The notes under the pieces were generated by a model. It saw only the letters and a list, made by a program, of their open reading frames with translations, made no database searches and was not told where the DNA came from. Positions 17,812 to 64,000 of a DNA stretch of 64,000 nt are shown in pieces; the first letter of the stretch is position 1; each line of letters opens with the position of its first letter. Origin of the DNA: Psammoneis japonica. Taxonomy: Eukaryota. Location: positions 434,001-498,000 of the forward strand of contig QPGO01000014.1 in the NCBI GenBank assembly GCA_008632985.1. Direction: 5' to 3'. The position numbers were made by a program, and so were the translations under genes.

Positions 17812-17957
17812 TTAACATCCACTTTTTGAGCTTGCAGCGAGTCTCACAACTTGACAAACACCGACCAGATGTCCATTATTTGCATTAACATCCACTTTTT
17901 GAGCTTGCAGTGAGTCTCACAACTTGACAAACACCGACCAGATTTCCATCATTTGCA
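17812..17957 (+). repeat. Two tandem copies of a 73-bp unit
   Basis: ttaacatccactttttgagcttgcag... begins at 17812 and 17885; three differences between copies. Confidence 0.95.
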
Positions 17958-25679: not shown

Positions 25680-27910
25680 TTGAGAAAGTTGAAGTTCAAG
25701 GAACCCATCATTCCAGAAGGCTTCGGCAAAACAGTCAGTGAAATCATGACACTGCAGACACCCATGTGGCATGTGTGGCAGCATCTGTTGCACCGGTGGC
25801 AGTGGTGATTGAGAACATTTTCCTGAAGCGTCAGCCACATCAAGACACTGCAGACATCCATGTGGCATGCGGGGCAGCATCTGTTGCACCAGTGGCAGGA
25901 GGAGTGGTGATTGAGAACATTTTCCTGAAGCATCAGCCAAGTCGGGTTTTCTCCCTTGCCATCGCTGACGAAGCAAAGGGGCACGGCACTGTGGGTGGTC
26001 AAGAATGACATTAAAAGCATTTGGTTTGGCAATCAAAATTGTTCAATTCTTGGCAACTGGCAGCCAGTTCCAAGAGGCACAGTGCCAATGTCCACAGCTC
26101 TTCTGGCTTGTTTTGGCAAAGCTGGCCAGCCTGGTCAGATGCACAAAGTGCTTGGTTGGGTCTGAAACAAAAGTGGTGAAAACAACTGAAGTTGATGAAA
26201 GTGGAGCAAGACAAATCTGGGTGATTGGGGGCTGTGGAGAGGAAAGACAAGAAAGAGAAATCACATTTTCTGGCACCTCAATCAGAAACCCCAAAAAAAG
26301 CTGTTGTTGTTCAAAGCCATTCTGGTCATGTGCAGAGAGTTGCTCCACACAGCAGCAGTGCTGACCTGACTTCTTGTTGTTGCTGCCAGTGCCAGGAGTG
26401 TTGCTGACCATCTTGGCAAGCCCAGGAGTTTTCTTGCCTCCTGCCAGTTTTTGCTGTGCTCTGAACCTCATTGCGATTGCAAGCTCTCCCCCAACGGTCA
26501 TTTAATTTGTTTGTTCCATAAAAAAATGAGAGCCAGAAGCACAGGCTGCTCATTTGCACACATCCTCCATGTTCAGCTCAGATCTGCAAGAGTCAAAATT
26601 GAGCCAGAGAGATGGGAGCAGTTGGAAACAACTTTGGTGTAAGATGAGAAATCAAGTCCACCAAGAACACATTTAAAGCTGAGAGCATGAGCCAGTGGAC
26701 AGAGGGTGACAGTCAAAGAACAAGAGTTTTGTGACAAACTCAACATTCTCCATGACTTTCAGAAAGAGAAATGCTGCAATCCTGCTGCAATCCTGCACAG
26801 TGTTTTGGACAGGGTGGCACTTTGGGGTTGTGAGGGATTTTCAACCACAGAGATTGTTGAAGCCTGTGCAAATGTAGAAGCAGCAAAATGAGCAGCAACA
26901 GGTGGCATGGGGGCTGCAGGAGCAGGGCAGGAACAGCTGGAGATGGGGGAGAGAAGAGGAATCGAGGGATGTGAGTGGCAGAGTGATGGGCAATGTTGCA
27001 TCCAAGAGTTTGTGCAGCCCATTGAGAAGGGGAGGTTGAGTGGCAGGAGCTGCCAAAGTGATTCTCATCAAAGTCATCCATGCAAAAAAGGCAATCAGCA
27101 AAAGGAGCTGGTGGGTGCAATGTCAATGTTGACTGTGAGAGAACCCTGCTGGCTTTCAATCCAGCAGAGCAGCACAGAGGCGGCAACCAGAGCAATTGCA
27201 GATGGCACTGGCATGGTCATGCCCAAGGGAGGAAGCAGACAGGTGGTCATGGGTGAGCAACCTGATGATGGCAGCAGCTGCAAGGGTGTCCATGAGCGGC
27301 ATCAAAGAAGGGCTGAGGAGGGCATGCAAGGGGGCAACAGATGCAGTCACAAAGGCAATTGTGTTGGAAGGCTTGAAAGGGGTCAGGGAAGGAAGAGCAG
27401 CAGGCACGGTCATGGGGGCAGATGTGGCAGAAAGGCTCAAAAGGGTCACGGAAGAAAGAGCAGCAGAGGAAGGGGTGGGAAGTGCTGGGACAGCAATCTT
27501 GTGTGAAGACTCCTGGCCGCACAAAGGGCATGGAACAAAGGTGCAGGAAACAGGGAAGGTGGATGAAGCAACCAAAGGAGGATGGTTGAGAATGGAAGGT
27601 GATGATGATGACAGCAGTGGTGAGGGAAATGAGAGCCACAAAAAGAAAGGAGGCCAAGGCAGAGGGTTGAGAGGCCACTTTGGGAGGTGTGCAGCATGGT
27701 GCCACTGCATCCGCAAGGGGACGCTGCCACTGCAGCAGACACCACCAATTGATTGAAGTTCACATGCATTGACAGTGACAGGGTCTGCTGACAATGGAAT
27801 GACCATCTGACACAATGATGCTCCAATGGAAACACTTTTTGTGGAATGGTCCGGATGCTTCCTCTTCTGGCACAACCAACAAATGTTTGATTTCTGGTCA
27901 CTGAGCAGCA
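25680..27910. other. TpA- and CpG-depleted tract B
   Basis: Same dinucleotide signature as tract A; no identifiable product. Confidence 0.8.
25748..25939 (+). repeat. Two tandem copies of a ~96-bp unit
   Basis: gacactgcagaca...gattgagaacattttcctgaagc at 25748 and 25844. The second copy has CG->CA at two sites. Confidence 0.9.
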
Positions 27911-28476
27911 GTGCTAGAAAGGTCATCTGAGGCAATGTCAGTTAAGAAAACAACTCATTTGATTTGGTTGGGTGCAGTCTAGATTGCTGAGAGTGTCATC
28001 ATTTCCCCATGTGACCAGAGCAGCCTGGAAGTGCACTTTGAGCTGTGCCAGGTGTTTCTTTCTCCAATTTCTCCTTCACAGGAATCTTAGCACTTACAAG
28101 GTTCACGAGGCTTCTCACTCTGGAGGGGTATTATCGACAGATGCAACAGCCCCTCTGCTTCTGATCGGGTTGCCAAGAGAAGCATCGTTACTGTCATTGA
28201 GACTGTGCAAAGGCCTTGGCTGAATAATGGCGAAAAGTCGACACCGACAGCATCTCAACCTACAAGCCCGTTTCATAAGGATTCGTCGTCATGCCAAAAG
28301 TCAACCAAAACACGGCAGGTCGCTAAACGTTGGCGAGTCAATCAACAATGAGAAAGATTTAGTCTACTGTACAGATGCTACGCTACATTACTAGTTCAAT
28401 CTCTGTCTTTCGTATTGCTTCGGACGTTTCAGCGGCTTGATTTTTTGACCTTGTCCTTTTCTAAATTATAGACATT

Positions 28477-34499: not shown

Positions 34500-36080
34500 C
34501 ACCGCCTTCTCTCTTCAGCCAGCTGCCAGCCACAATGGCCAGCTTGCCACCCTGAACCCTGCCAGAGAATCAACGACCGCACGACGTGGTCAGCAGGCAG
34601 GAGGGGCGGTGGCGGGCACTGGGCGGATTCGCGCGAAGATCCTTCATTTCGCGCGGAGACTTTTGAGTCCAGCTGTTCGACGAGGAAACGTTTGCCGCTT
34701 GTTTGGATCGGTTCAGGAGATGAAAAGCCTGTTGCTGGTGGTGACCCAGTCTAAACGTAAGCTTCTTGGCTGAGTGTGTCTTCTTGAAGTGGGGCAAATG
34801 ATGTGACAATGAAGATGAGGCATTGAGGGCAGCACCAACTGGGGCAAGAAGGCAAGCTTGTTGATGGCAACAAAATGAGGAAGGCATTTTTGCACAAGAG
34901 CTGATGTGCCTGACCTTGACCAGAACTCTGGCTTCATTTAAGGTTGCCACTGACAAGTGCAGCACAAACAATGGCAAGTGCTGGCAGAAAACCAGGCCTG
35001 CTGGCTCCGGACGCACTCCAGCTCCAGGTGGGACCTCGCACTGCTGCGCTGTGACATCAAGAGTTTTTGAGATCACATCACATGTTGCGCGTGCAGATGG
35101 CTGTGTGTGATGTTCTACAAAATTGTTTCATGCTCTCCATTTTGCAAAGCCAAAGGCTTTCCATTTTCAACATTTGTGATGATGAAAATGCGCTGGGTGT
35201 GTTCTCCAATGTCTGAAGAATGTTCCCGGGCAAACTGTTGATGATGTGCTTCAAGTGTGTGGGAGGAGATGCATTTGTAAAATTGCCTCTTTTTCTGTTG
35301 GCGATCATTTGCATTTTCATTGCTTGACAAATTTGCTGCGGAGCTTGCGCGCAGAATTCTATGGGCCCAATGTCACACGGAGTCCCACCCAGGACTGGAA
35401 CCCGTCTCCGACTCTCTCCCACATCAAAGAGAAGACACACACATCATCGTGCATGATGGGGGGCGGGGGGGGGGGGGGGGAAATGCTGCCTTGAGCAGTT
35501 GTGGCTTTCTTGAGCAAGGAGCAGGAGCTGCCAATTGGAAAAGAGCTTCAACAGCTGTTTTGTTCTGTGAGCTGCCACCTTGGATGCTCCTCAGCTGTCT
35601 CTCTCTTGGGCCCTCTCTGTGTGTTTCTGCACAGATTTTCTCTCAAGTCAAAAGGGCGTCTCAAGCCAGTGGGCCGTGGAGGTTGCTCCAGCCCGCGCAT
35701 GACAACAATGGCAAGAAAATGCACTCTGAAAGTGTGGGCACCACACCCCTGCATTTTTTGTTTCTCGTGTCGTGCACAAAAAGCACACCCCAGAATGCGC
35801 TGTGCCACGGAAGAGACCAGGTCACAAATCGAGGGCGCAGGTGTGATGAGGCACCTGGCCCAAACAAGAAGTGTCCTGCAAACCACCACAACCTCAAGTT
35901 CAAACACCCTCTGCCACCCTTCTTCTCCAAGGAGATCAGCCAGCACCTCCGAGCTGAATGGCTCATGAAATTTTGAAAAAATCGACCAGCGCCATTTCTC
36001 ATGGGTGGTTGCATGCGCCAGCGTGCGAAGGGATCGCTGCTGCCGGTCCGTCGATTCTTCCTTTTTTCGTGTTTCTTTCC
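34500..36080. other. TpA-depleted (partly CpG-depleted) tract C, probable TE remnant
   Basis: TA is rare across the tract while CG is retained at the edges. Poly-G run at ~35458-35480. Confidence 0.7.
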
Positions 36081-36411
36081 GTTTCTACCTACAAACACTT
36101 CAAAACATCAAAACATTTGTAAAAATAAGGAACGGTTGTCTTACTTTACTCAAGAATTGGGCTCAATTTCGAAATTTTGGTTGGATGCATTCTCAGTTTT
36201 GCCCAATTGTAAAAGATTCGCCGAGATTCGCTTTTCCTCCACCAGCCACTCAACTGACGATGTTTTGGCGCAAAAACAGCACACGAAGAGTAAAACGGGA
36301 ACACCATTGATGAGTAGATTCAATCGCGTCGGCGAAGTTGTTTGTTGACTGCATTTGTTAGCCTTATACTGCCTAAGCACTGCTGTTGGATTGTTAGAGA
36401 GTCTCAATAAA

Positions 36412-41417: not shown

Positions 41418-43401
41418 GGTATAATAACAAGGATGCAGTTGTAATACACAACACTCAATGGGTTGTGAAGACACTTTGGCGTAATCTGAATCGTAGTGCT
41501 GGTTGTGTTTCGTGAACTCGGCCGACACGACACAAATGCACGAGACGTTTTCATGGCCGTTTTGAAAAAACCTTGCAAACTTGCAAACCCTTTTTTTCGG
41601 CGGGACAGGTTTAATTCTTTTGAATCAAGAAGAAGTCAGAACGACATGATGTTGAGCTCTTGATGATGACAGGTCCCAAGCACTTGCACTTGCTTGCACC
41701 TCTCGGATCAACTTCTCGAGGCGAACGTGGAGCAAAGGCAGCGCTCACGACGAGTCAAGCAAAATAGTCTTTCCCAGTCTGGAGACCAGAAGTACAAAGA
41801 AGCCATCGCCAAATGACGAGTCTCCTTTTTGGAACACCTACGGAAGACATGTGAGCCGGTAGAAGGATCAGAACTCTCGGCATGCTCCTGCAAGAAGCTG
41901 CGACGAGCAGCAACGACGCCATGGCTGATTCTGATGATTATCGATCGAGCGATTCCTGTTTTTCTTGTCGTCTGTCCAGCGCGCGCCAGCGATCCAATTG
42001 TATCCGCCTGTCTGTCCACGCGTGGAAATTCCGTTGAGATTTTCCCGCCACTTTGGACCAAATTTTTAGAGGCTCAACAACAATTATGTGCCACAAATTA
42101 TGTTACAAGGCCATGTTCTGGTCTTTTGAGTGCAAGTTGTTGAGAAGATGGTAACTCGTCCGGCCTAGACAGCCCATGCTTTTGGTCAGTTGTTTTGTGT
42201 GAGAAAGACCGTTTGGCTGAATGCCCACATCACTGCCAGCTGGGGCCCTGCTTGACAGTGCAGAGTCAATGCACGCAGTGTTTGTGTCAGAATCTCCATC
42301 AGGTGCCATTCAACATCTTGGACTAGAACTTGGTCAGGATCCCAGCGGAAGCGATTGTTTTGTGCAACAGAATGGTCGTCGGCGCTGAACTCACTCGGAG
42401 CTGAGTGTGGCATCAGGCTCCCCGATTCAATCAGCAGCAACGGCTTGATCCTCACAAAAAATGGACAAGACCATCTGGTTGCCATTGACCTTGAAGACTG
42501 GTCTGATGTTGAGGAGACTGGACAACTTCTTTTTGGTGTGTCTGCATCAATGTGTTGCACATCTGGCATGTTCGGTCGCACACAAGCACCTGGCCAGTGA
42601 GCCCACGCCACATCCCTCTCGTCCATGATTGCTGGATTGGTTCCTCATCTGCTTCTGAGTCTAGAGTCATGGAGCAATGGGTGAGGCAATCTTTTTGACT
42701 GTGACACTTGCGGATCCTGTGGCCTTGTTTGGCCTGATCTAACCACATTTCTGCTTGCACAGGACCGCCATCTAACTTTCAAGCAAACTTTCTCAACACC
42801 AGACCCCGTTGGCATTCCACCGCACAGTCGCACCCTTGAGACGTCTCCCAACATGTGAGAAATCAGAACAAAGTGAATCCAATGTTTTGGGTTATGTTCA
42901 TGATGCGAGTGCGGTGTTTTCATTGGATCGACGCCTCTCCCACGTCTCTCGCCATGTGTTTTTGTCAACCTCAATTTCAACTCTCCCATGTGGCTGTTAA
43001 AATTGCCCTGACCGCAGGCTTGACACAGCACATTTGCATTTTCTTGTGGATTGCTGCATCCATTCCCAACTGAGGAGTGTCATGCAGTGACAGGAACGTT
43101 TCCGTGAGGGGCAATGGCATTCCATGTTTGCGGTGATTTTCCATCAGGAAAAGCATCTGCCACTTGTAACATTCTTCCTCTTCATCATCTTCCTCGAATG
43201 ACACTGCAGGCACTTGCAAGGAGTTTTGGTGTGATGTCTGGGGTGCTGCATCTTCCGCCAGATTGCCGCAGTCATTGTCCATCTCGTCAATCTCGTCGAC
43301 ACTCTCCAGCCGTGATGATGACCTTTCTTCATTGGTGCCTTCACGCCCAACTTTGCCTTCCTCATCCTCAGAGCTCTCCCAACCACAAAGATTCATGTCT
43401 G

Positions 43402-44448
43402 TCAACCCAATGGAATGGAGATGCAACCAACATAAACTGACAAGTGCTTCTTCCGCCGCATTGACAGATCATGAAATCCAGCACTCTCTCTTAGAGACAT
43501 CATCACAGACAGTGCACACAGGACAAAACAATCGGTCAAAACAGAGAACAATGCCGGTGGGCGCCTCGCCATTGACTCTGCCACAACTTGTGTCAAGGGA
43601 GACTTGTTCTTCTTCTTGGCAAGACATTGCCATTGCTTCATCTTGACATTCACCTTGCACTCCAGGAACATTCTCTGCAAGTGCATCCCAGGTGCAAGCC
43701 CACACTCATTGCATTTCACAGGGCATCCCTTGATCACAATGGCACCCAACTTAATTTTCAAACTTGTTTTCTTTGCCCCCTTGTTGAAACAGGGGATGCC
43801 CTGTTTGTCAGCATTCAAACGCAAATGTTCTGCTGAGACAGCAATGTTGCATGACAGAGCATCCATCCCATTGACATTGATGGCATCCGCTTGTGAAGCA
43901 TGAAATTCTTGGTTCATTTTGGTCATCAAGTCCCAGAGAAATGACACAAAAACCATTTGTGTCAGTGGCTCGTGAGGGCTGCAGCATCCAAACAAGAGGA
44001 ACCTTGCATGTTGCAGGTTGACCAAGGCTTCGGGAAGGAACGTCGTGAGGTTTGCTTTGTGGTCATGGAGGCCAAACGAGTCAATGAGATTCTCCACATC
44101 CGTCAGTTTGTTTGTTTGTTTTCCTCCCATCTCAAACCTCTTGAACTTCTGAAAGGACAGCTCTGATTCATCCTCAAACATGCCATGATGAATCTTGTCA
44201 GCATTGAGACTGCCACTGACAAGGTTTGCACTGCAATCGCTGTCATCACTGACAGCTCTTTCACTTTGGCTGGGAGTCTTTGTCATTTTCACAGGATGGA
44301 AGGCACCACAGAAACAAATGAGATCCAAAGCGCGTGGATCTTGAAGGTTTGTTGGGTCTTCCATGTGCTCTTGAAGATCTGACTTGATGTCCTTGCAGCA
44401 ATTTTCTGGTGTCAATGCCAGGCAGTCAAGCAAAAAATCAATTGTCAC
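43402..44448 (-). pseudogene. Decayed ORF with possible PD-(D/E)XK restriction-endonuclease-like C-terminus
   Basis: FLECK...LTQVVAESMA...SVLTD pattern; essentially no Tyr in the body of the ORF. Confidence 0.35.
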
Positions 44449-46184
44449 ATCCGGATTTTCACAAATGCGATCCCTTTGCGTTTGATCTGTTGCATTCCAA
44501 AGTTTTTTGTGTCAAAATCACTCAAAGTAAAAGTGTCATCTCAGACCACACCATCACCCAATGCATGGTTCTCAAACAACCCTCGATGATCATCCAACAA
44601 TTTTTCCCATTGACCGTCTTTCTCTGGATCATGGTCAAGATGATCTGTGATGTCCAAGATGTGTTGGAGGATCATGGTTTACTCTTGATGAACTGGGGGG
44701 CGGCTCCAGCCAGCTGCTGGCTGAAAAACATCTGCTCGTCAGTGCGTTTGGGGGTTTTGCCATCGCAATTTTTACGTGCGGTGTGCAAAAGAGGGCAAGT
44801 CTGTCCAGTGTTCACCGAAAGAACCCCCCTGATGCACAGATTGACAGACTCTTTCAGTGCAAATTCTGCACAAGATTCTTCAGCCAGCAGCTGGCTGGAG
44901 ACTTCCCCCAGAATGGCAGAAGTTGCTCAACATGTCAGCAGCATGAGTGCACAATGCTGCACATGAAAATGGCAACAAAAATGCTTTTATGCACAAAAAA
45001 CAAGTGAAGACAGTCTTGAGTCTGCCTGTCAGTGTGTCTGGGGGTCCTAAACATCAGAGGGAGAAATGCAAGAGCAAAACAAGATGATGATTGTTCCTTC
45101 TCTCTGCATTCCTCCAGAACAACTCTTTTGTCATTTTCAAGCCAAGGATGCATTTGGGGCCTTTCACAAGCACGAGATGGCCAAATGGTTGTTGTCAAGC
45201 CGCATCACAAGCATGGGTGCCAAAAAAAGCACGGCAACGCTTCTCAAGGCTGAGTGTGGTGCAGGGCGCATGCCCAATGTGGAAGGCATGTTTCAAGATG
45301 TGGAGTGGGGTCAGGAAACCATGAACTGACAAAGGGAACTTTGCAGGATCAAGATTGACTGAGTGCAATTGACATGGAAGTGCAAGTCTTGACAACGGGA
45401 CAGTGTGAGCACTTGTTTGTTGAAAGAGATGAAAGCTGTTGTCAAATTGTCTTGTCACTCATTGCAATCCCTTTTTCTCCCTTGCAACAGTTGGCTGGTT
45501 TATTCACAGCCCACAACAGCTTGGCTCAAGGATTTGCAAGACACTTTAATGAGTGCTGCAAGAAACCTGTCAGGGCCGTCACATGATGTGGCAGTGCACG
45601 CTCAGCAATGTTGTCCTCAAGGCCAATCTCAACAACAAGAGGCACCATTTGGTCATGAGTCCTCTGCAAGCAGAAAAGCACAAGTGGACTCTCCCAAAGG
45701 TTCAAAAAGCCATTGGAGTTGAGGACTGTGGTGATGTGGAGCATTTGCTTTAGTTGCTGTGCACCGGTGAGGACGGCACATGTGTCTTTCACAAACATGA
45801 CCATCAGGAACCAGGCACCAACCCGGCCAACAAAAAGGTTTGTCAAGCTGTCTTTGATCAAGACCACAATGAAAGCTTTGAACACTCCCTCTGGCAAATC
45901 AAAATTAACAGCATTGTCTTCAATGAGACCAAACAAGAGCATGAAAGGGTGGTGCAGGCCATGTCTCATGATCACTTGAAAGCATGCAAAATCCTCTTGC
46001 ACCGTGAGCTCATGGAGCCACAGGAAAGTTCGAAAATTGGTGTCCCTGCAGAAATTGGTGCTGACTCATGTGCATGCTTTGCCATGTTAAAAGGGTTCTT
46101 TTTGAGCAAAACACTTCTCACAATCGACCATCTGCTCCGGCATGGCTGATGCCAATGAGCAAGAGTTTTGGCCACAGTTGAACA

Positions 46185-47800
46185 ATGGGCTTGAGCAGTG
46201 CCAGTGCAGTGTCATGGAAGATGGTGAAGATGCCACTTGATTTGGCCATTCTCATTGTTCAAGAGATTGCAAAGAAGAAGCACAAGCTGAAGCAACAAGA
46301 GTTAAGAGATTGTGGTGGCAGAAGCAACAACAATGGCATGGCGCCAATTGATGTGCCTTGACAGCAACTGATGCTTGCTGTGGATGCAAATCCACTGGCT
46401 TGCAAACATGATGGTGACTGCTCAAGCTTGCATCCTGACAATGCTGTTTTTCACATTGTGAGAATGTTGTCAGAGAATCTTCGCAATTTGGATGTTGTTG
46501 CTGATCATCCAACAAAGCATCACCCATCCAAGCAAGCTTCTTGTGAGCATCAAGCCAATGCCAACAAGGCTGATGTTCAACTCATTGTGGCAAGATCTAA
46601 TCTTCAGAGTCTTTTGGCTGCTGGAGATGGTGGTGGCCCGGATGAGTGTGTGAAACAAGTCAACAAAGCACAGAAACGAATGCAGAGTCTTGAGAAACCA
46701 CTGAAAAGTGGGTTGGATCCAGAGTTTGCTGAGAAGCTTGGTTGCTCAATCAAGGAGTGTGACCCACAAGGAAAGGGTCAGATGTTGTTTTCTGTTGCTC
46801 CAAAACAAGCTGATCCCTGTCTTGCCAAAAAAGTTGCAGATGGTGATGTCGATGCTGTGATTTTTCTGGAGACTCTCTGACTTTTTGATGCACATTGGCC
46901 CCAACTGATGGGACTCATGCTGAAAGAAAGACATTTCCATTGCAAAAACAAAAGAGCCCATCAAATCATGTTGATTGTGCAAGGGCCAAGAGTTGATCAC
47001 AACTTGCATTGAACAAATCTTACAACCTGTTCTTGAGCATTCACCATTTGAGAATGACAAAAGCCAGAAACAAGACAGGAATGTTCCGAAGTGTCCAATC
47101 TTCAGTGGAGTCCAAGACGATGGTTTGAGCTCCATTGGCCATTCTGGTGGGCTGTGATGTGTGTGCCAAAGGAGCACTTGGGAGTGGTCTGCATGCAGTG
47201 AGTGAACTGATTCAGTTGCATTCAAAGGAAAAGACAAGAGCAAGAACTCCACACAATGCTCTTGCAACTGCCATTTGTGAGATGTCTGGTGCAGCTGTTT
47301 TAGAAAAAAAAGCTGTCCTGACATGGGCAAAGTCTGTTCTGTTTGAGAAGATGCATGGCAGTGGACACATTCACGGTCAGCCGCCAATGGTTTTGGGACA
47401 TTGCCTCAAAGATTTTGTGGGAGAAAGTGCAGAAATTGAAGATGGTCCCACATTTGCAGCGTGCAAGGGGTTCAAGAGAACCAATCATGAGTTTCTTGCA
47501 GCAGAGGGAGTCCAAGAGTGTGCCATCTGTTCTTGCAAATTTTGCCACATTGTTGAAAAAGACAAGTTGCCTGGAGGTGAAGACAGAACGCTCTGCCTTG
47601 AATGCTTCTTTGAGGATGCTGCATTGGGTGTGGACAGCCAGGATGAGAAAGATGTGCAAGAACATCTTGCAGGCAAGGGTGTCCAAGCACTGCAATGAAC
47701 AGCATTGCATGTTGAGGTTTTGTCTCTGTGTGAGGATGCTGAAGCCGGTGCCTTCAACCAATTCGATGAAGACATCACAGATGTCAAGCTCCCGCTGCTC
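46185..47800 (+). pseudogene. Decayed XPG/FEN1/Exo1-family nuclease followed by a Cys-rich finger, probably TE-borne
   Basis: MGL start, LAVDAN, DVVADHP.K.HPSK, APKQADPCLA...VDAVI, then GDSDF after a frameshift, AILVGCD (H3TH), CAICSCKFCH...LCLEC. Confidence 0.7.
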
Positions 47801-47859
47801 CCAACATCTTCACTCATCCTTCACAGGAGCCCAACTTTCATCGAATTGGTCATGGGACA

Positions 47860-48350
47860 CAGTTGGCTCCAATGATGAGATCAACATTCATGGTCTCAGA
47901 GGCACCAGCACTGTCACTGTCTTGGTGATCCTGGCAATGGATTGTGTGCTGACTCTCTGTTGTTCTGTGATCACTTGGAACATCAATCAAAGTGATGAGG
48001 CCATCCATGATCTCAGAACCTTGTTTGAATGCACAACCCCAAAGGCATTCATCCAACATTTTGTGGTGGCAAAAACCAAGGCACTTGTCAGGTTGGAGGG
48101 TTTCTCCTGTTGTCACCTCAACTCCTGTTGGAGAGGTGACCATCCCTCTTGCACCTTGCACAATCAGTTGCACTCTTGGGGATGTCAAACTCATCAACCA
48201 TTGCCAGCAGGATTGCCCCACCACAAGGCTTTGCATTTTCAAGTTTCATTTCAAACATCAAAGTCATGACAACTCCTTTCTCCTTTGCAAAAGTTTCTGC
48301 TGCACTTGACCCCACTGGGTTGACACCAAAAATTGCAATCTTGAACTTAG
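47860..48350 (-). pseudogene. chlP: Decayed 5' fragment of geranylgeranyl reductase
   Basis: KIAIFG..PVGSSAAETFA...FEMKLENAKPCGGAI..AMVDEFDIP, then in the next frame SPTGVEV..GETL...MNVDLIIGA. These match the ChlP N-terminal half. Confidence 0.85.
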
Positions 48351-48769
48351 CTTTGCGGCACTTGCACAGAGAAACAGACCAAAAATGGACTGACAGAGCA
48401 GAGACATTGTCAAGAACTTTTCCTTTTTTTGAAAATGATGGGAACCCAAGAGAGAGGGAGCCTGTCATTTGTCCTTTTTTAGTTGGGAAAAGCAGGGATT
48501 TGCTTCGTGCAATTGACGCAGTCATGCAAAGGGAATTGGGGTTTGCGTGTGCAAATCTTTTAGCTTCTTTTGCACAATTTTTGAACAACACCTGGCGCCC
48601 CATCACAAATTTTTTCATCCTTGGTTTTGGCTGTCTTGGGGGCTTGATGCAAATGGTGCAGTGCCAGTCCCATGGTTGCAGCTGCTGATGCCAAGTGTGT
48701 CAATGCATTTGAGCCATCATCCTGAAGGGACCCAGTGCTCACACAGCAGTCTTCCCAACTGGGATGTTT

Positions 48770-49060
48770 GTGGTGTGGTGAGCAGACCTTGCTGTTGTTG
48801 TGCTGGTCCTCACATTGACAAATCCACGTGCTTCAGAATGCAGCTTTTGCTGCTTGTCTGAAAGTCAAGCTGCAATCATTTGCAGGGTTGCTCTGGCTTT
48901 CTTGCCAATCAATCCCATCACAAGACACCACAAAAGGTTGTTTGAAATGATGATGTTCTTGCTCAAGGCACAGCTTGAGACACTTGCACCATTTTTTCTC
49001 TTTGTCATCAGGTGGATCTTGCTCTGGCATCTGGGAAAGGCAGGATTGCACATGAACTTC
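48770..49060 (-). mobile_element. Non-LTR retrotransposon remnant (CRE-like restriction-like endonuclease C-terminus)
   Basis: EKKWCKCLKLCLEQEHHHF..PFVVSCDG and LIGKKARATLQMIAA*LSDKQQKLHSEARGFVN, similar to EKK.KYL..CLEQRRHFTPFVVS.DGL.G.EA...KPYS...GYVN. Confidence 0.7.
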
Positions 49061-50199
49061 AAGCATTTTTTTGTGTTTGGTTGCAGCTCTTGCTGGAGCT
49101 CTTGCTCCCGCACAAGACAGCATTTGCTTTTCTTGCTCTCGACTGCTGGCCACTGACAGGTGCAGCTTGCCGTGTGCCTGGGAGGCAAACAAATCTTTGT
49201 TGCTGCCATGCCTCTGCAGCATCATTGTTGTTTTGTAGATGCAGCCCTGCCATTGTCTTCTCCATTCAATGCCTCTTGCAACTGGTGGGGTTTGTGGTTC
49301 TTGGTGTTTGGGTGTGGTGGCATTGTTGCTGTCACAATGCTGTCTGTGGGTTGCAGCATCAATGTGTTGGAGATGGTTCTGTGGGTTTTGGTGCTGGTGC
49401 TTCAGTTGTCAATGTTGTCATTGGCGCGCATCACAGGTGCGGGTGTTGCAATTGGTGTCAGCATCACAGTGGTTGCAGCAGCACAAAACTGGCATGAGAG
49501 ACACCTTGTTGGGCACAGGGCTGTGGCAGCAGCTGTGTTGGCAAGGTCCAAACTGGCTCAGCCAAGAGGTGCAATGGCTCTGCTTTGCCACTGTTCTGGC
49601 TGCAGTTTGCTGTGGCACTTGTGCGTCAACTGAGGCAGCCAGCATCCAGCTCAATTTTTGTCATCTGCCCTTTGGCACAGGCTTCATGAGCATTTTTTGA
49701 GCAATGTGGTGCACAAGAACAAAGTTCTTCTCTCCAATGGGAAAACACAATTGTTGTTTGGAGGAACACTTGCATTGAAAGCTCCTTGGAGAGAGGCAAG
49801 CAATGGGACAAGAGTGCACCAAGGCTCAACAGTGTGCTGTCTGCATGGCCAGCAATTGTCATGGGCAGCCGTGGCCAGGACTGGTGCATTGCACCCAGCA
49901 GCGCTGGCTGACAATGATGGTGGTGAATTGAGAAAACCAAATCTCCAGCTGAACAACCCAGAAAGTAATTTGTAACCTCGCCTGCTGGGAATGATTGGAG
50001 GAGGATAAAAGTGCTGTTGCAGGTGTGCTGGGGCCAACTCTGAGTTGTCTTCTTGCTCAGAGCATCATTGGTGCACAGCTGAGAGCTGAGCACAACAGAC
50101 AGAGGCACCATTTTGGGGAACTCCAGTCCTTGCTGCCAATTGGCAGCATGGAATGGAAGAGGCGTGCACATTGCTCAGATGGAATCCAGGATCACAAAA

Positions 50200-50560
50200 T
50201 GCCACCTTTGTCACCTGGCTGTCCTGCTGTTCTTGCTTGGTCAGATCATGACAGAGCAGCTCTGTGGTGCAATCTGGAATGGACTGGGAGGGTCAAACAT
50301 GCCTGGATTGGACAAGTTCTTGCACATGAGAGTTGAAACCCCAAGATTGTGGGCTTCTTTGTTGCAAGTCAGCGGCACAGCTGGTTCTCATTCTCTGTGG
50401 GTCTGAGACATTTGTCATTGCAGCATGCACAATGCTTCAGACCTTGCAGAGCTTTCACACTTGCTGGGCAGCCCAGAGCCTTGCTGTTTGTGCAACACTG
50501 CAAAATGCAGATGGGGTTGAAACATTTGAGTGAGGAGTGAGAACACCTGGACATGGCTGT
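50200..50560 (+). mobile_element. Non-LTR retrotransposon (RTE-like) post-RT region remnant
   Basis: DHDRAALWCNL...AWIGQVL...PR and KSAAQLVLILCGSETFVI...MLQTLQSFH, similar to YKAVVQSVLLYGSETWV...ML..LEGFH. Confidence 0.6.
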
Positions 50561-52481
50561 GATGCCAAAAGAGGCTGATGGTCTGTGCCCTTGTTTCCTC
50601 ACAGAGACTCTCTCCTGAAGCCACATGGACAGTGTGCCAGACACTGCCTTGTGCAGGTGCTGCATCTCAGCACAGCTCCAAGGCATGCAGTTTGAATCCA
50701 AGAAAATTTCCAATGATGTCACACAATGATCTGCAGCAGATGCCAAACTGTTTCCATCAAGTTTCTTCCAAATTTCTCCTGATGTCAAATGCAAGGCCAC
50801 AGGAGGGGGGGGGGTGCTGAGAAGCTCTGAAAATGGCGTCTTGGTGTGGGTTGTGGTTGGCATCAGCACAGAAGTTTGCACACATTTTTGGGGCTTGTTG
50901 CTGGGTGCTCGCAGCTGACTTGCTCCTGCTGCAGCCAGTTGAGGCTGCTGCGGCTCTGCTCCTGCAGAGGCAGAGCTGGTTGTTGCAGCACCAGGAGAGC
51001 CCAGGCCCTCTGATGGCATTGTTGGTGTTGGCATTTGACATTTGCCCAAAATCCAACTGGAGATCTTCAACAAACACTCAACATGCGAGCAACAACAGCA
51101 GCAGAAGGCACCTGACATTGAACTGTCAACATTGAAGACTGTGTCAAAAATGGCTTGCTGTCACTGTTCTCTAAAAAATGCTGAGAGAAGTGAGACAAAG
51201 GCAGACAACAGCCATCGTTGCTTCACACCCAAATTCCAGCACTTTTGACAGATCTTAGAATCTCTCTCTGCGTGCACTGGTGCTGCACCCACCAACAATT
51301 TTGATTTTTGCATGAAGTGCAAAAACATGAAAATCTGCCATGGGCTGTTTTGCATGGAAGACAGCCAGATGAAGTGGTGTGCACAAAAGATGTTCCTGCC
51401 AAAGCTGTGCTGAACATTTGGTGACTGCTGCTGCCCTCCCAAAATATTTTAAGGAAGCAGTCACACACACATGTGATGTGCTCTTTGCATGCAAAAGACA
51501 CATTCTCCAAATGCTGGCATGCCGAGACAGTCTGCTTGTTGAGCTGTGCAGGATCCCTTCCTTTCTGCACATTTTTGTCAAATTGGCATTGCCACAAATT
51601 CCCTGCCTTGGGCAACAATGTGCTGGATGTGACCTGCCAAGTGGCAGCCTCAAAAGCTGTCTTCCTGGCCAGGCATTCCATCATGAAGGCTTGTGGGCAT
51701 TGCTCATGACAGCACAAGGTTGGAGCTGATGATGACTGGGTGGGCTGCTGAACTCACCTGGATGAATGAGCCATCAGCACAACAGCACATTTCTCAGCAG
51801 CTCTCATGAAACAATGGTGACACCTGCTTTGTGACGCTTCAAATGAAACTCTGGTGCTGCCATGGCTTGAGAGCCTTGTCAGTGCTGCTGCAACAACTCC
51901 AAAGCCAACAAGGCACAGAAGTGATGCCACCACCTGCTGGAACATTGACAAAATCGGGTGCCAAGTTGCACCTCCATGTCTGGCACCAAAGTGCAGCAGA
52001 TTCAACTGGAGCGGCAGCTGCAGAAGGCAGAAGCCCCGTTCCTGGTCAGACATTCCATGACAAAAGCGTGCGAGTGTCGCCATGCCATGAAAATGTCAAA
52101 GCTTGCATGTTGCAGCAGTGAACCCTCACCTGAAACATCAAGCCAATTGACCATCACTCGAAACTGATCATGGCATCAGGCTCCCCGATTCAATCAGTGG
52201 CAACAGCTTGATCCTAACAAAAAATGGACAAGATCATGTGGCTGCCATTGACCTTGAAGACTGGTCCCACGTTGAGGAGACTAGACAAGTTTATTCTTTA
52301 TTCGGAATGTTTACATCAATTTTGTATATCTGGAGCACAAAGACAAAGCAGAAAGGTATGATGTTGGGTTCTCGATGATGGCAGGGTCCAAGCATCTCCA
52401 CTTGCATGCACCTCGGATCAACTTCTCGAGGGATGCACGTAGAGCAATTATAAAGCATCGCTCACGCACGTTGCTTCAAAG

Positions 52482-57314: not shown

Positions 57315-57789
57315 GTTTGACAATCAGTGGGAACGAATGCAATGCGTGTATTTCCTATAATAATAGAAGAAAAGAGAGGATTGATTCTGAAGTGTGCTTT
57401 GCCAAAGAGTTGCAAGACCCGCCTCCGCCGCAGCAACGATCGCGCGACCGCCCTTTAGAGTGTGGATCAGCTCTAGCCTGCTAGTATTTTACATCTGTTT
57501 GGAACACCTCCAATCGAGACAGTCAAAATCAATTGAGAATGATTCACCGGGGGTCATAGAGTGGCCAAGACTCAATGGTGAAGTGCAGAGTAGCATCTTA
57601 TTCTTAGGTTTTTCGGAGTAGAAAAAAGTAATTTTCAAAACATTGTTGGCATGTGTCATCTTCTCTTTTTCATCTCTTTGGACCAACACGCGATGGTATC
57701 GTACAGGATCGATTCATTGGAGACCAAAGAAGAGAGTCGCTTCGGAGCGATTGTGCCCATCGCAAAGGGGTGTGGACGTCTTGTATTTC

Positions 57790-58314
57790 TCAATTCCGCA
57801 CCATGCACACAAGATCATTTCCCAACACGGTTGATAAGAGCGAACCAGCCGCAAACTCAAATCGTAACGGAGGAGGCAAATCCTCGGATTGAACCATTTG
57901 AAATCCGTGTTTTTCATAAAAGGGCATTGTGGGTTTCAGAGTCAAGAGGCACACAACATGCGGATCGTTTTCACTGTCATGTCGCTTTAGCAACTCCTCA
58001 ACAAGCTCGGTTCCTATCCCTTTGTTGCGATATTCCGGAAGCACGTAAAGTGATGCAAGTTCGGCAAAGGTATCGTCTAGAGGGCGAATCTGGCCGAATC
58101 CCAACAATTCATCATTTTCGTCATCATCATCACAAGCCACCAAGAGTGTCCTTTCCGAAATGGATAAGGGGTTCATCTTTTCTTTCAGCAAAGTCTTGCG
58201 CGCCACAGAAACATCACTGAGCGTAGCTTGACGAATTTCCACGGAAAAGGCCGAGACGCATCTTGTTGTCAAGCACACCGCGACAATGAAACACCTGGTG
58301 AGGCTGGAGTTCAT
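57790..58314 (-). CDS. GNAT N-acetyltransferase, probably plastid-targeted
   Basis: Signal peptide ending VSA-F; ELASLYVLPEYRNKGIGTELV; FYEKHGF. Confidence 0.88.
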   Translation of the reverse strand: MNSSLTRCFIVAVCLTTRCVSAFSVEIRQATLSDVSVARKTLLKEKMNPLSISERTLLVACDDDDENDELLGFGQIRPLDDTFAELASLYVLPEYRNKGIGTELVEELLKRHDSENDPHVVCLLTLKPTMPFYEKHGFQMVQSEDLPPPLRFEFAAGSLLSTVLGNDLVCMVRN

Positions 58315-58504
58315 TATTTTGTTGTTCTCGAGAACTCTAACACGCCGCACTTTCTTGCAACTCTGAGTATGATTGCATATACCGTATTTTCACAGCCCTG
58401 GTAAATGCCACTAAGCGAGGATGCAAAATAGCGGCGAAAAACAAACTAGCTAGAGGAAATACTTCTTGACCAACCTGAAACGATGTCAAAAAAAGATTCT
58501 GTCC

Positions 58505-60264
58505 CACTCTCCATCGTGAGTCTATGCGTCGACCGTTCTTCGCGCGCGCGCTCTCACGCACCCGAAGAGGTCTCCTCATAGACTCTCGCGGAAGTAAGAC
58601 GGACGATGTACCAGGGTCGTATGTAGGCCGTTTGTTACGGTGCCGTTTTTCCGGACATGCCGCAAGCGCATCGTCTCATTGCTGTTATCGGCATGAACGA
58701 CTCCCAAGGCTATCTAGCACTGTAGAATGAATCTTTCACAGTGTTGGGACGTTTCGAGCACACCATGACAAAGCCCCACAGTTGCATGACTGCCACATGG
58801 CTCCTCACTCCATCATCCACAATCGGGTGTGTTGACCCTTTTCTCTCGGCTCGATCGTGCTAGCCACACATCGAACCACGACCTGTGAACTATCACGCCA
58901 GGTCATTGAGCTGGCAGTCGTCCACCAGCAGTTGCCACAGGAGGCTGAAAAGAGAAGGGAGGATGCAAGAAGTGAGAACATCCGTGACACAGGATTCAAG
59001 AGAGGCAACAAAGTTGGAAACATCAACGCAAAAAATGGAAATGTTCTCACCGGCAATTAACGCCAAGGAAGAGACACGACAGCACCACTGAGCACCGAGA
59101 GGTGCGCCAAAGAATGCCACTGAATCCCCACCAAGCCCATCAATCAGCCTGTGTTTTCGATCCATGCTGCATCACAAAGCAGGAGATCTTGCCAGAGGCG
59201 AAAACAAAAACTGCAATTGTTGAGTCACAGAAGCAAGTTGTGAGCAAAATCACAACACCAACTTGCCAATTGACCTTTGTGCACATTCTTTTGTGTCTCT
59301 GTGCATGTGCTTGTTGCTGCAACGGCATTTGTCTCACGCCATTGCCAGAGGCATTCACACCATCGTGAACTGATGAAATCCTGCGTGAAGTGCAAGCCCC
59401 ATTGAGTGAGTTTGAATGCCAACAATTAACAACATTGTCACATGAGCTTACCTCCTTGACTCAGTGTCACCAAATGAGCACAGCCAACACACTCAAATCC
59501 ACCCAAGCGGTGAGAAATCGACACAACCGTGCAAAAATCTCCAAAAATGTCACAAAACAGCGACGCCCAACCAAAAATGAGACCCCAGACTGTCTTTGCC
59601 TCGAATCTCAGAACTGTGGTCAAACCACACCTCATGCAGACACCAGTGAACAACACCAAGGCATTGCATGGACTGAGAACCTGCGTGACAACGAGGGAGA
59701 GCCCAGTCCGTGAGCGAGCACATTTCTGGCAAAAAATGCAAAGCCATTTGTTGCGAATGACAGAAACAATGGTTGTGCCCCAAGAAAGACAATGCCATTG
59801 CAAGGCAATGATGAAAATGCGCGTGAGTTTCCATGTCATAACTTGCAGGGCGCAACGGAGCGGAGCATGCGACGACAATCAACAACACATGTCAGCACCC
59901 ACCGAAAAAGTGACGATTTTGCACTTGGTCAGTCTCGGGGATAAATCAATCAAATGTTTGCCAATTTTCTCCATTCTGGCACCATGGTGCGCTTCAACAG
60001 CGAGTGTCTGAACAACCACTGAGCGGTGCAAGGCATGGCGGTCGATGCGCCGATGAAATCAATCATCGTCGGAACGGCACATTTTCTGGTGTGTTTTGTG
60101 CAGAAAGCTCTGCAGAGCGTTTCGCCAAATCCAGGGAGGCATGGCAACAAATTTTGAGCCACTGTCCGTCTTGCTTCCGCGAGAGTCTATGAGGAGACCT
60201 TTTCGGGTGCGTGCGAGCAGCGCCCGCGAAGAACGGTCGACGCATGGACTCATGATGGAGAGTG
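58505..60264. mobile_element. Non-autonomous TIR DNA transposon, Mutator-like (1760 bp)
   Basis: ~105-bp TIRs (CACTCTCCATC...) and a 9-bp TSD ATTCTGTCC at 58496-58504 and 60265-60273. No intact transposase ORF. Confidence 0.9.
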
Positions 60265-60354
60265 ATTCTGTCCATTCATCGCCCTCTTTTGCGGACATTG
60301 AATGTGGTTTGTTGTGCTTCAAAGTCGCCAAATAATTGAATGAAAATGCTGATA

Positions 60355-60863
60355 AGGACTGAGGCGAGCGCGCGGCTACACGAAGTTGTCAGTCCCGCCC
60401 ACTCGTGACTCAGTACATTTCTACGGTGAAAATTGCGTGGGAATCCGAAGATGACAAAAACGGTCAGATAACTTCCGCTAACTACAATATGAACTGCACC
60501 TAATGTACATTCCATGTTCTTTTATACATGAATTAACACCTTTAAGCGTTAGATGCAGTTACTTTGATGAATTTCGCCAAAATAACGCTAAGCACTGCAT
60601 TGCGTGCAAATCCACGGCACTCCGTACGATTCGTGTTTTGTTTCGGATAACTTCCAATTCGTCAAAGTAACTGCATGTAACGCCTAAAATAGTTAATTCA
60701 AGTATTAACGAACAAAGAATGTACATTAGGTGCAGTTCATATTGTAGTTAGCGGAAGTTATCTGACCGTTTTTGTCATCTTCGGATTCCTACGCAAAAAA
60801 TTTACTGAGTCACGAGTGGGCGGGACTGACAACTTCGTGTAGCCGCGCGCTCGCCTCAGTCCT
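60355..60863. mobile_element. Foldback MITE (509 bp) with ~210-bp inverted arms, flanked by TA (Tc1/mariner-type TSD)
   Basis: AGGACTGAGGCGAGCGCGCGGCTACACG... at 60355 with its reverse complement ending at 60863. Arms ~60355-60573 and ~60656-60863. Confidence 0.88.
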
Positions 60864-61094
60864 TAGATGCGATGATCTTATGAATTTCTGTATCGGAATC
60901 AATATTGAATGTATCATATCTACGCTCGCGCGAGACACCAAGAAAAGAGGGCTTATAAAAAAATTGTAATTGTGACCCTGACCTTGTAAAACGTTTCGAG
61001 AGACGATGTCTCTCAATAGTCATTGTTATTCAACCTGCCATCCACAAAATTGCCCGCCGGCATTCTCATTTCAATCGAAGCACATACAAGGACG

Positions 61095-64000
61095 ATGAGC
61101 CCAACGAAAACGCCGTCAAACGGCAGAAGGCTAAAGATGCGATGCCTATCTTGCGCCATCTTCGTTGCAACTTGGACGTTACTGTCGCTTTTGCCATGCG
61201 CCCATGCGGGATGGTCAAAGAGCATGAGCAAAAAGGACAAAATCATGCTTGACCAAGTCATGCAGGGCCGAATCGAGCTGCCAACCGACATGAAGTTTTT
61301 CGTCAAACATTTGAACCGAAAGGGTTTGAGATTTGCCAAAAGGCAAGCTCGAGGAAAAACCCTTGAGCAGCACCTTAAGGAACAAATGGTCGTGGCTTTG
61401 CATCCGCGTACTGGGAAAGCTTTGAAGAGATTGACCAAGAACGAAAACATTGCGTACGTCGAGCCGGTCCATAAAGTACGTGCAATGCCCTTTCGGAGAA
61501 CCAACAGCTCAGAGGTAGGACGAGGAAGGCGACAGCTTGCAGAATCCATTGCCTACGGCGTGAAAATGGTGCAGGCATCTGAGATCTGGAATATTCCACC
61601 AGTAGCAAAGACCAAGACATGCATTGTCGATAGTGGATATGGATTGGGTCACCCTGATTTGCCCGAAAACGTGACTGGAACATCGACAAGGACTGGGCTT
61701 TGGTACGAGGATTCGTACGCACATGGAACCCATATATCAGGAGTCATTGGCGCGAAAGGAGCTAACAATTTAGGCGTCGAGGGTGTCATAAGGACCCAAG
61801 TAGATACGTTGACTTTCATATTGCAAAGTCTCTGGACGGCAACGGAGAAGGAAACGAGGCCGATTTAACGGACGCATTTGAAGGATGCATCAAAGCCGGT
61901 GCCAAAGTCATAGCATGAGTTTGGGTGTTGAGGATCACAGCGAAACCTTCAAGGCGATTCTGAAGGATGCATACGATGATGGTGCTTTAATCATCTCTTC
62001 TGCCGGAAACGGCGGAGACTCGGCCTACTCATATCCTGCATCCTACCCATACGTCATGTCGGCAGCAGCTGTTGACAAGGACATGAACGTGGCTGGGTTC
62101 TCGCAATTTAACGACCAAGTCGAAATTGCAGCTCCAGGTGTTGACATAGTCTCGACTGTAACGCTGAACAGCGGGAGAGCTTTTGGATATGACAGTTGGA
62201 GTGGTACATCAATGGCGGCTCCTTTTGTTTCGGGGATTGCTGCAGTACTATTCTCACACTTTCCGGAATGTTCTAATCATCAAATAAGGGCTGTTCTCAT
62301 TCGAACGGCATTAAACGAGGATCTCGTCGAGTGTAGTGACGAGGTTGGGTTTGGCGTCGTACAAGCCAAGGCAGCCTATGATTTGTTGAAGAATAATGGA
62401 TGCATTGCTGGAGATGTCTCTCCAAGGCCGCTATCTGATGGTGCGTATGGAGGATGTGATCAAGATCCAAACTACGTTCCACCGCCAACAGGCGCACCAA
62501 CCACATTCGCCTGCGGAGACATTATATTTCGTCTCGAGCTCACAACGGACGAATGGGGAGAGGAAACATCCTGGACAGTGAAGAAATCCAACGGCGATGT
62601 TGTTGGCTCAGGGAGCGGTTACCGCAGCTCTACATCCTACACCGAAAATCTATGCCTTGCTCCCGATTCGTACACATTCACTATTCGCGATTCGGAGAGT
62701 GATGGAATTTGTTGTACGTACGGTCAAGGATCCTATTCCGTGACTTGGGATGGCATATTGATTCAATCAGGGGGGGCTTTCATGGACTTGGAAGAGATTC
62801 CATTAGGTAAATCGTTTAGCTTGGGGCCTAAGGTATCTCCAGATGGATTCCCCTCTGTATCAAATACCGGCTGCGAAGACGATGCCAGCTGGCAGTACAA
62901 TACCAAAAGGGGGGGGAAGAAAAAATGCAAGTACCTCAAGGCGAATCCATCTGCTAGATGCAACTTAATGGGACGGAACCAAACGGGGCAGTTGACGTCT
63001 GGCTACGATTCTTGTCCGCTTTCATGTGGTGGGTGTCATGCAAGTCTACCGGATGAGAAATCATCATCAACAAGCCCATCAACACCAGCACCAACGCCTT
63101 CGCCATCCCTTCTTCCTTCAACGTTATCTCCCACCAGACATCCGACGTTTTTACCGACTTTGAGTCCAAGCGGCTATCCAACTCCCACACCTACTTTTTC
63201 ACCTACAGGGCCGCCTACAAACCAACCAACGGAACATACGACGACTACGCCAACAGTGCGACCTTCGCAGAAACCCACATTGAGCCCAACTATTTCACCC
63301 ACCTTTTCACCTTCTCCGCAACCGACAGATACAGATCTGTCGCCGCCCCCTCCGCTACTTACTGTGAGTGTCCTCCAGACTCTTCAAGGGATCGATATGG
63401 GTAGTAGATTTGGTGTATGTGTTGAGTTCTCTGGAGATGGAAGCACAATGGCTGCAGGCGCCATCAACAAAAACACCGTCATTGCATATCGATGGGATGG
63501 CAATCAGTGGAATATTTTTGGACAAGTACTTCGTGGAAGTGGAAGTTTCGGTGGTCGTGTGGGGCTGAACGAGGACGGCACCATCCTGGTTGTCGGTGCG
63601 AGAAGTAACAATGATGGCGGCTACCAAGCTGGACAAGTCCAAACATTTCGGATCAACTCAGATGATAGATGGGTCCCTCATGGACAGCCAATTTTTGGAA
63701 AATCAGATGTTGATCACTTCGGCTGGGATGTGGCCATCTCAGATGACGGACGGACAATCGCCGCTGCTTCCTTTTCCGTGGTGATCTATCGCGACAAAAA
63801 GTGGATGCCGGCTATGTTCGAGTGTTTGCATGGGCTGGCAAATGGGTGCAATTAGGCAAGGATATTGAAGGTGATGTTGCTCATAGTTGGCTTGGTCGAG
63901 CCATCGCATTCGATTCAGCTGGACGTAGAATTGCCGTCGGGTTGCGAAAGGTGGAGATGGTGCAGGAAGTGTAAGGACTTTCGACTACGTAAATGGTGCC
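61095..64000 (+). CDS. Secreted subtilisin-like S8 peptidase with Pro/Thr-rich linker and FG-GAP-like repeats; 3' truncated; 1-bp deletions near 61790, 61911, 63772
   Basis: IVDSG, HGTHISG, SAGNGG, GTSMAAP catalytic motifs; PTxSPT repeats; FG..V.[LI]S.DG.T repeats. Confidence 0.88.

Follow-up and report, generated by a model that had tools for sequence, protein, structure and literature searches.

In the diatom Psammoneis japonica, a transposon copy appears to have undergone regional hypermutation of TpA to CpA or TpG, a process that seems to have outpaced a separate decay of CpG. The copy, a non-autonomous element of 1760 bp (positions 58505-60264), lies in a 64-kb stretch of contig QPGO01000014.1 (assembly GCA_008632985.1, positions 434,001 to 498,000 of the forward strand; here called the window), and it belongs to a dispersed family that is Mutator-like by architecture. 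We regard this reading as probable. It draws on the composition of the affected tract and of further blocks in the window, the direction of change, the dependence of TA loss on flanking bases, the boundaries of the tracts and the multi-copy nature of the family, each observed directly. An earlier note on this DNA had claimed that TpA is lost no more slowly than CpG, and not as a late consequence of CpG decay. The claim is supported by an odds ratio of 20.6 between TA and CG loss, by the block pattern, by the flank dependence and by the TA dinucleotides found in other copies.

Loss of TA and CG within the element

Between 58610 and 60159, the element contained 14 TA (observed/expected ratio [o/e], 0.15) and 66 CG (o/e, 0.70), while CA and TG were in excess (o/e, 1.54 and 1.77), which bears out the earlier description of an interior rich in CG and poor in TA. 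The depletion did not cover the whole element: the left 225 bp were untouched, and the affected tract began only at about 58730. Positions 58505-58723 held 11 TA; positions 58730-60160 held 7, compared to 51.7 expected at the window background rate (Poisson P = 8e-15). CG in the latter interval was reduced to 56 compared to 79.3 expected (P = 0.004). The right terminal inverted repeat (TIR) contained 1 TA, and no other followed until 60333; this TA-free run of 68 bp into the right flank is weak evidence, as only about 2.5 TA were expected there. Two sites of the class RTAY (R, purine; Y, pyrimidine) were intact in the left 225 bp (gTAc at 58609 and gTAt at 58620). As this class is nearly extinct in affected DNA, the left 225 bp truly escaped.

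In the affected tract, from about 58730 through the right TIR, TA loss was thus at the floor that is also seen in old blocks of the window, and CG loss had reached about 30%. The element had been described as caught in the middle of the process, which holds for CG but not for TA, whose loss in this tract is already complete down to the floor. Under first-order decay, and assuming that ancestral densities equaled the background, the retained fractions give a rough ratio of TA to CG loss rates of about 6.

Other copies of the family in a public sample

Contigs from one public sample (Logan; runs X1 and X2) were aligned to positions 57500-61300 at 80% likeness. In total, 629 contig pieces of run X1 aligned over this region, and the summed contig depth over the element was 373-3833 compared to about 55 in the unique flanks, although depth does not equal copy number. 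Thirteen contigs ran off into mutually unlike flanks at 58503 and 58505 (5 and 8 contigs, respectively), and short deletion derivatives were found with joints 58549 to 60235 and 58628 to 60174. The element is a member of a dispersed multi-copy family. One contig of single-copy depth spanned the left flank into the TIR, and therefore the sample carries the insertion. A joint that skips the whole element (empty site) was not found among the 15 of 21 joints listed, the sample itself carrying the insertion.

Transitions accounted for 304 of the 382 variant places in X1. Forty of 396 variant places were listed, and the 34 of these that lie inside the element were each read in context. Other copies had TA where the window had CA or TG at 18 of the 34 places, and CG where the window had CA or TG at 7; the remainder comprised 1 place with CG in the window and TG in other copies, a linked pair (2 places) at which the window had CA and the others TG and which could have had either origin, and 6 other changes. 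Since the other copies carry TA at these 18 places, the family is not TA-free; a TA-free family would, according to the earlier note, have refuted its claim. Comparing lost and retained dinucleotides in the window copy gave 18/7 for TA and 7/56 for CG (Fisher P = 5e-8 for the odds ratio given above). By hand count, about 12 of the TA-type changes at listed places led to CA and about 6 to TG, an asymmetry that was not significant. At 59141, 59175, 59240 and 59361, every other contig had TA, and the changes at these four places must therefore be private to the window copy or to a rare lineage. Many TA/CA states were common to part of the other copies, at fractions of 0.06-0.85.

Three differences between contigs and window in single-copy flanks were all of the signature type (TA/TG at 57703, TG/TA at 58468 and CG/CA at 60293). 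Allelic variation is one possible origin of these differences and spill-over of the process another, but three places are too few for a verdict.

TA-poor blocks across the window

Segmenting the window on TA count gave five TA-poor blocks, one of which contains the affected tract of the element (Table 1). Together they covered 20.6 of the 64 kb, and all of them displayed a CA/TG o/e of 1.5-1.9, compared to a window background of 0.53 for TA and 0.98 for CG. Over the five blocks, CG o/e spanned 0.13-0.72 while TA o/e stayed at 0.06-0.09. No block and no 1-kb bin of the window was CG-poor but TA-normal: TA was already at its floor wherever CG had started falling. The hypermutation was bounded, with sharp edges in all five blocks and normal TA content in the genes outside them.

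Judged from their predicted proteins, the blocks cannot be recognized as transposon genes. Among 104 open reading frames (ORFs) of at least 90 aa from the five blocks, no Pfam match below E = 0.005 was obtained besides a cullin relic. A further scan of the + strand between 42.1 and 48.5 kb covered 56 ORFs, 48 of them 30-89 aa long and 8 taken again from the 104; over both scans, the two cullin fragments were the only matches below this threshold. Rfam and tRNA scans of the window gave no match. The 10-kb block is flanked by two pairs of direct repeats (41627-41927/52340-52651, 73%; 42391-42566/52154-52333, 82%), whose order, A-B ... B'-A', fits neither simple long terminal repeats nor a tandem duplication.

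Table 1. Features of the element, the TA-poor blocks and neighboring repeats (positions in the window; TSD, target-site duplication)
Feature	Position	Strand	Remarks
Left TSD, 9 bp, ATTCTGTCC	58496-58504		Identical to 60265-60273; abuts TIR; no TA, no CG
Left TIR, 100 nt	58505-58604	+	Keeps 3 TA and 15 CG; 93% match to reverse complement of 60164-60264
Left subterminal region	58605-58729	+	8 TA, including RTAY at 58609 and 58620; spared by TA erasure
Hypermutated interior	58730-60163		CA/TG excess; TA and CG deficits; no protein-family match
Right TIR, 101 nt	60164-60264	-	1 TA only
Right TSD, 9 bp, ATTCTGTCC	60265-60273		9/9 identical to left copy; abuts TIR
TA- and CG-poor block	17901-22850		TA o/e 0.06, CG 0.13, CA/TG 1.8; no Pfam match
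TA- and CG-poor block	25701-28050		TA o/e 0.06, CG 0.13; no Pfam match
TA-poor block, intermediate CG	34501-36100		TA o/e 0.09, CG 0.54; no Pfam match
10-kb TA-poor block	42151-52250		TA o/e 0.06, CG 0.23; CG declines along the block, with per-kb values from 0.54 to 0.08
TA-poor block of the element	58751-60350		TA o/e 0.09, CG 0.72
Frameshifted cullin pseudogene fragment, C-terminal	45120-46053	+	Corresponds to about residues 405-688 in a cullin of 731 aa; lies in the 10-kb block
Multi-copy foldback repeat	60354-60836		141-nt arms 60433-60573/60656-60796, 91% complementary; right neighbor of the element

Flank dependence of TA loss

Residual dinucleotides were sorted by their flanking bases into the classes RTAY, mixed and YTAR, and the density of each class in the five blocks was related to the background. 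A single RTAY site was left in the blocks compared to 493 in the background (ratio, 0.004); for mixed sites the counts were 39 and 832 (0.10), and for YTAR sites 46 and 244 (0.40). The difference between the classes was highly significant (chi-square, 92.9; P = 7e-21): 99.6% of RTAY but 60% of YTAR were gone. Each block kept 0-1 RTAY site, and the order, with RTAY lost ahead of YTAR, was consistent in all five. The CG ratios were nearly flat over the RTAY, mixed and YTAR flank classes (0.32, 0.27 and 0.25). TA loss thus depends on the flanks and CG loss does not, which argues for two processes with different recognition; two processes would be the simplest reading of this contrast. Part of the residual TA may be regenerated sites, but the pattern would still reflect class-specific loss rates.

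A strand-specific model requiring only the 3' pyrimidine (TAY) was dropped, as about 6 mixed sites fit it and about 5 did not (hand count). Both the flank classes and the mixed sites are accommodated by an additive preference in which a purine at -2 and a pyrimidine at +1 each contribute.

Direction of change

The 10-kb block harbors a fragment of a cullin gene that is spread over three reading frames (tblastn with seven cullins) and was recognized by Pfam (Cullin, E = 3.8e-12 and 1.1e-3) and by its match to CUL4A (E = 1.3e-9). A word-based search found no full-length relatives of this fragment; the seven cullins came from an exhaustive search. The relic kept 67 of 115 columns that are conserved among the seven. 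None of the four conserved Tyr was kept, the codons now reading CAC (twice), TGC and CGC, each of which, with one exception, lies a single transition from a Tyr codon. Only 2 of 12 conserved Arg were kept; the other ten had become TGG, CAG, CAY (five) and TGY (three). These Tyr and Arg codons therefore set the direction of change as TA to CA/TG and CG to TG/CA. The relic could be a fragment captured by a transposon or a dead duplicate.

Ends and architecture of the element

The element is framed by the perfect 9-bp TSD that had been reported for it (ATTCTGTCC). Its TIRs, put at about 105 bp earlier, measured 100 and 101 nt; the two arms are 93% identical, with 6 substitutions and a single-nucleotide indel between them. 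Three of the substitutions are of the signature type (catCGtg/catCAtg, gtcTAtg/gtcCAtg and aagTAag/aagCAag), the right arm having CA at two sites that are TA in the left arm and at one site that is CG there; the others are C/G, T/G and G/A. A 22-nt degenerate terminal pattern matched twice in the window, at both ends of the element, with 0 matches expected (100 shuffles). With no TA and no CG in its sequence, the TSD is unable to record the loss of either; it bounds ordinary divergence loosely and tells little about the age of the insertion. Each TIR also holds an internal 20-nt inverted repeat of its own (58515-58534/58569-58588, 80% complementary), with which a single arm could self-fold.

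Mutator-like elements (MULEs) have TSDs of 9-11 bp and TIRs of about 100-200 bp. The element has a TSD in this range and TIRs of 100 and 101 nt, and further copies that end in the same termini are dispersed over different sites. With its 9-bp TSD, 100-nt TIRs, lack of coding capacity and short internally deleted forms that share its ends, it resembles the non-autonomous derivatives of MULEs. It differs from known MULEs in that no MURA-type transposase was found. Pfam detected no transposase domain in the ORFs of the element or the window, and two metagenome-contig scans with TIR patterns revealed no MURA-type or autonomous partner, the two degenerate patterns giving 0 matches each. The 8 ORFs of at least 90 aa in the element had no Pfam match at E<0.01. 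No further copies were detected in the window by blastn or with the degenerate TIR pattern.

Genes and repeats that are spared

Duplicated and repeated DNA in the window was not affected as such. Two inverted HSP70 copies (7498-9506 and 33551-31543), 22 kb apart, share 97% identity over 2009 bp; they differ at 62 places, 5 of them TA-type and 13 CG-type, which represents an ordinary substitution spectrum. The Pfam model NAD-GH, which derives from the reverse strand of HSP70 genes, is matched by long antisense ORFs on each of the two copies. The multi-copy foldback repeat next to the element had a summed depth of 386-1939 in the bins covering 60294-60928, compared to about 55 in unique flanks, with loose contig ends at 60354 and 60836. 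It was not TA-depleted (TA o/e, 0.66 in bin 60001-61000), and its arms differ at 12 places, of which 1 is TA-type, 1 is CG-type and 7 are transversions. Because TA persists in the foldback repeat and in the left end of the element, which is present in high copy number, and the HSP70 duplicate is normal, copy number alone is not the trigger.

Other ORFs of the window represent ordinary eukaryotic genes. A ferric-reductase ORF (23178-25349) had its best matches, at 53-58% identity, in diatoms (Trieres, Odontella and Thalassiosirales). An ORF at 3777-5057 (- strand) combines Fpg/Nei-type glycosylase domains (H2TH and Fapy_DNA_glyco) with HeH/LEM and is a gene for a base-excision enzyme, with no shown link to the hypermutation.

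Proposed mechanism and alternatives

We propose that a regional hypermutation acted from about 58730 through the right TIR and converted TpA to CpA or TpG by transitions, at a rate that falls from RTAY through mixed sites to YTAR. TA erasure would by now be at its floor here, and a slower, flank-independent decay of CpG to TpG or CpA would have taken about 30% of the CG. The same two processes would have marked the four other blocks and left genes, the HSP70 pair and the foldback repeat untouched. The loss of TA is probably enzymatic. In the simplest case, as proposed for the alga Bigelowiella natans, adenine within T-A steps of the DNA would be deaminated to inosine, which is then read as G; an alternative route by thymine modification (T to C) would be indistinguishable from sequence. 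The loss of CG, in turn, presumably stems from the usual deamination of 5-methylcytosine where repeats are silenced, and targeting would follow a chromatin or silencing domain and not copy number. More broadly, the odds seem to us slightly in favor of a dedicated DNA-editing defense in diatoms, which would change a central TpA to CpA or TpG (best in RTAY and worst in YTAR), act in bounded tracts of mobile or junk DNA independently of copy number, and saturate before one-third of the methylated CpGs have decayed. If so, the editor would be a natural A:T-to-G:C enzyme, either of common origin with the enzyme inferred in Bigelowiella or similar to it by convergence, and its action would explain why the repeat-like third of the window contains no recognizable transposon protein.

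Several observations count against this interpretation or narrow it. The TIR mismatches by themselves carry no significance. Between 16 and 38% of random substitutions in the TIR would be of the signature type, the range being set by the assumed transition bias, and 3 of 6 is therefore not significant; the three mismatches that had been singled out in the earlier note are present, but the account omitted the three other substitutions and the indel. The label MULE-like, which was given there, describes architecture (9-bp TSD and 100-nt TIRs), and as no transposase was seen, membership in the Mutator superfamily is putative. Because a low TA count was the criterion for choosing the blocks, their low TA content is a circular argument; the CA/TG excess, the spread of CG, the flank classes and the pseudogene codons constitute the non-circular evidence. 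At 12 listed places no X1 or X2 contig has the letter of the window, contigs being prone to drop rare variants, and the exact interior of the window copy was not independently seen in reads. Per-site loss fractions are relative and not absolute because 40 of the 396 variant places were listed, with no family consensus. Finally, the left 225 bp and the neighboring foldback repeat escape, and no simple repeat-sensing model explains this.

The main rival to in situ hypermutation is an inherited state. The interior would have been TA-poor at insertion, with changes built up in mobile master copies and the ends kept by selection for mobility; the copy would then not have been caught in situ, and the age of the insertion would be uninformative on the rate. 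This would account for the intact left TIR and left 225 bp, two RTAY sites included, for the sharp boundary inside the element, for the perfect TSD and for the TA/CA states shared in part with other copies. However, the four places at which all other contigs have TA point to private changes, and two of the three TA of the left arm are CA in the right TIR, although mobility requires that end as well. The TA-free run into the right flank points the same way, if weakly. We consider an inherited state unlikely, and even if true, it would leave the ordering of TA loss ahead of CG loss standing.

An artefact of assembly or base calling, by which real TA and CG (e.g., with modified bases) were miscalled as CA or TG, would agree with the 12 places at which the letter of the window is missing from the contigs and with the observation that X1 contains 0.68 of the sampled words of 57500-61300, near the share lying outside the interior. 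However, Logan contigs lose rare variants, and the read-derived contigs are themselves polymorphic for TA/CA/TG and CG/CA/TG, with many places split. Of 1031 bases in the unique flanks, 1029 are the same in contigs and window, the cullin relic is frameshifted as well, like a real pseudogene, and the order of RTAY before YTAR holds in five blocks. In addition, an Illumina-based mutation-accumulation study reports the signature as biological in another alga (10.64898/2026.01.13.699255). An artefact is thus improbable.

We give very little credence to a reversed direction, in which the TA-poor state would be ancestral and the TA of other copies would stem from C-to-T change at CpA, such as fungal repeat-induced point mutation produces. 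Pairs of copies cannot polarize the changes, and minority TA at 59636/59637 and 60029 (fractions of 0.06-0.27) is readable as gain; yet the cullin relic gives the opposite direction, the blocks have a TA o/e of 0.06 compared to 0.53 in the background, so that the acting process removes TA, several places have TA in all other contigs, and the 2-kb duplicated gene pair is unaffected. Equally slim is the chance of a composition maintained by selection (avoidance of nuclease or binding sites, or DNA structure) instead of mutational debris: the TA floor is uniform over blocks of unlike CG, but the only 1 of 104 ORFs of at least 90 aa with a Pfam match below 1e-3 is the broken cullin, no Rfam or tRNA match was found, family copies differ at exactly the TA and CG sites, and the pseudogene is altered at conserved residues.

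Relation to known systems

In methylated transposons, CpG decays by deamination of 5-methylcytosine, and diatom transposons carry CpG methylation. The CG loss described here resembles this decay: CG changed to TG or CA only in the repeat blocks (o/e of 0.13-0.72 compared to 0.98), and Arg codons of the cullin relic changed from CGN to TGN or CAN. CpG decay cannot, however, explain the loss of TA, which was faster, reached its floor first and followed a flank rule of its own.

Repeat-induced point mutation (RIP) disables repeated or mobile DNA by transition hypermutation in blocks and skews dinucleotide frequencies. It converts CpA to TpA, so that TpA rises and CpA/TpG fall, and it senses duplication, with a trigger above a few hundred base pairs. 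The tracts described here share with RIP the block-wise transition hypermutation of mobile DNA and the dinucleotide skew. We nevertheless rejected fungal RIP, for which PMC2621366 and PMC3318451 are examples from the literature: the skew is the opposite (TA, 0.06; CA/TG, 1.8), with its direction given by the cullin relic, and the 2009-bp, 97% identical HSP70 duplicate, the high-copy TIR and the foldback repeat were all spared.

The closest parallel comes from mutation-accumulation lines of B. natans, in which integrated viral DNA undergoes A/T-to-G/C hypermutation at TpA only (Mettrop et al., bioRxiv 10.64898/2026.01.13.699255). The same preprint describes TpA-poor, CpA- and TpG-rich clusters that are enriched in transposase and reverse-transcriptase domains and proposes an ADAT2-like deaminase as the agent; ADAR/ADAT-type deaminases, it notes, act from A to G and prefer a 5' U or T beside the edited A. 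According to this account, the process resembles ours in changing TpA to CpA/TpG regionally, on foreign or mobile DNA, and in leaving TpA-poor, CpA- and TpG-rich clusters. In the diatom, too, the TpA transitions were confined to bounded mobile regions and genes were spared. Unlike the changes described in the preprint, those in the diatom were not exclusively A/T to G/C, since CG was converted to TG/CA within these tracts as well; because this loss behaves differently with respect to flanks, it probably reflects a second process.

Further differences emerge from the comparison with the preprint. B. natans is a chlorarachniophyte, and thus a rhizarian, whereas the host here is a diatom (stramenopile). 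Erasure here was nearly total (TA o/e, 0.06), compared to a Rho of 0.45 for the nucleocytoplasmic large DNA virus region of B. natans. The loss of CpG is coupled in the same tracts here, while in the main text of the preprint "CpG" has 0 occurrences and "diatom" is absent. The preference for RTAY over YTAR and the sharp boundary inside a transposon were seen here; the supplements of the preprint may hold flank data. Mutations in B. natans were measured in real time, whereas the present process is known from sequence alone. With the ADAR/ADAT enzymes, as characterized in the preprint, it shares the A-to-G outcome and the preference for a 5' T/U, but these act on RNA as a rule, and the change here is heritable DNA in a cut-and-paste element without an RNA stage.

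Full-text literature searches found no report of TpA loss in, or hypermutation of, diatom transposons or repeats; one further paper, PMC9258296, was unrelated as judged by a term search. Within the literature searched, B. natans is the only other organism for which this TpA signature has been described, in the 2026 preprint. The RTAY/YTAR flank rule for TA loss without a CG counterpart and the spared left 225 bp of the element are new here.

Significance

The element constitutes a natural time point, with TA loss finished and about 30% of CG lost, and thereby orders the two processes. The process acts here on transposons and a pseudogene, is near completion and follows a four-base context rule. 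It offers a handle on the footprint of the presumed enzyme. If a natural enzyme makes A:T-to-G:C changes in double-stranded genomic DNA, it would be of interest to the base-editing field. Such erasure will mislead the annotation and dating of transposons in diatom genomes: no transposon protein domain was found in the 20.6 kb of blocks, and ages based on divergence will come out far too old. The presence of the signature in a diatom would make TpA-directed, GC-ward hypermutation a wider feature of the stramenopile-alveolate-rhizarian (SAR) lineage and not the curiosity of one organism.

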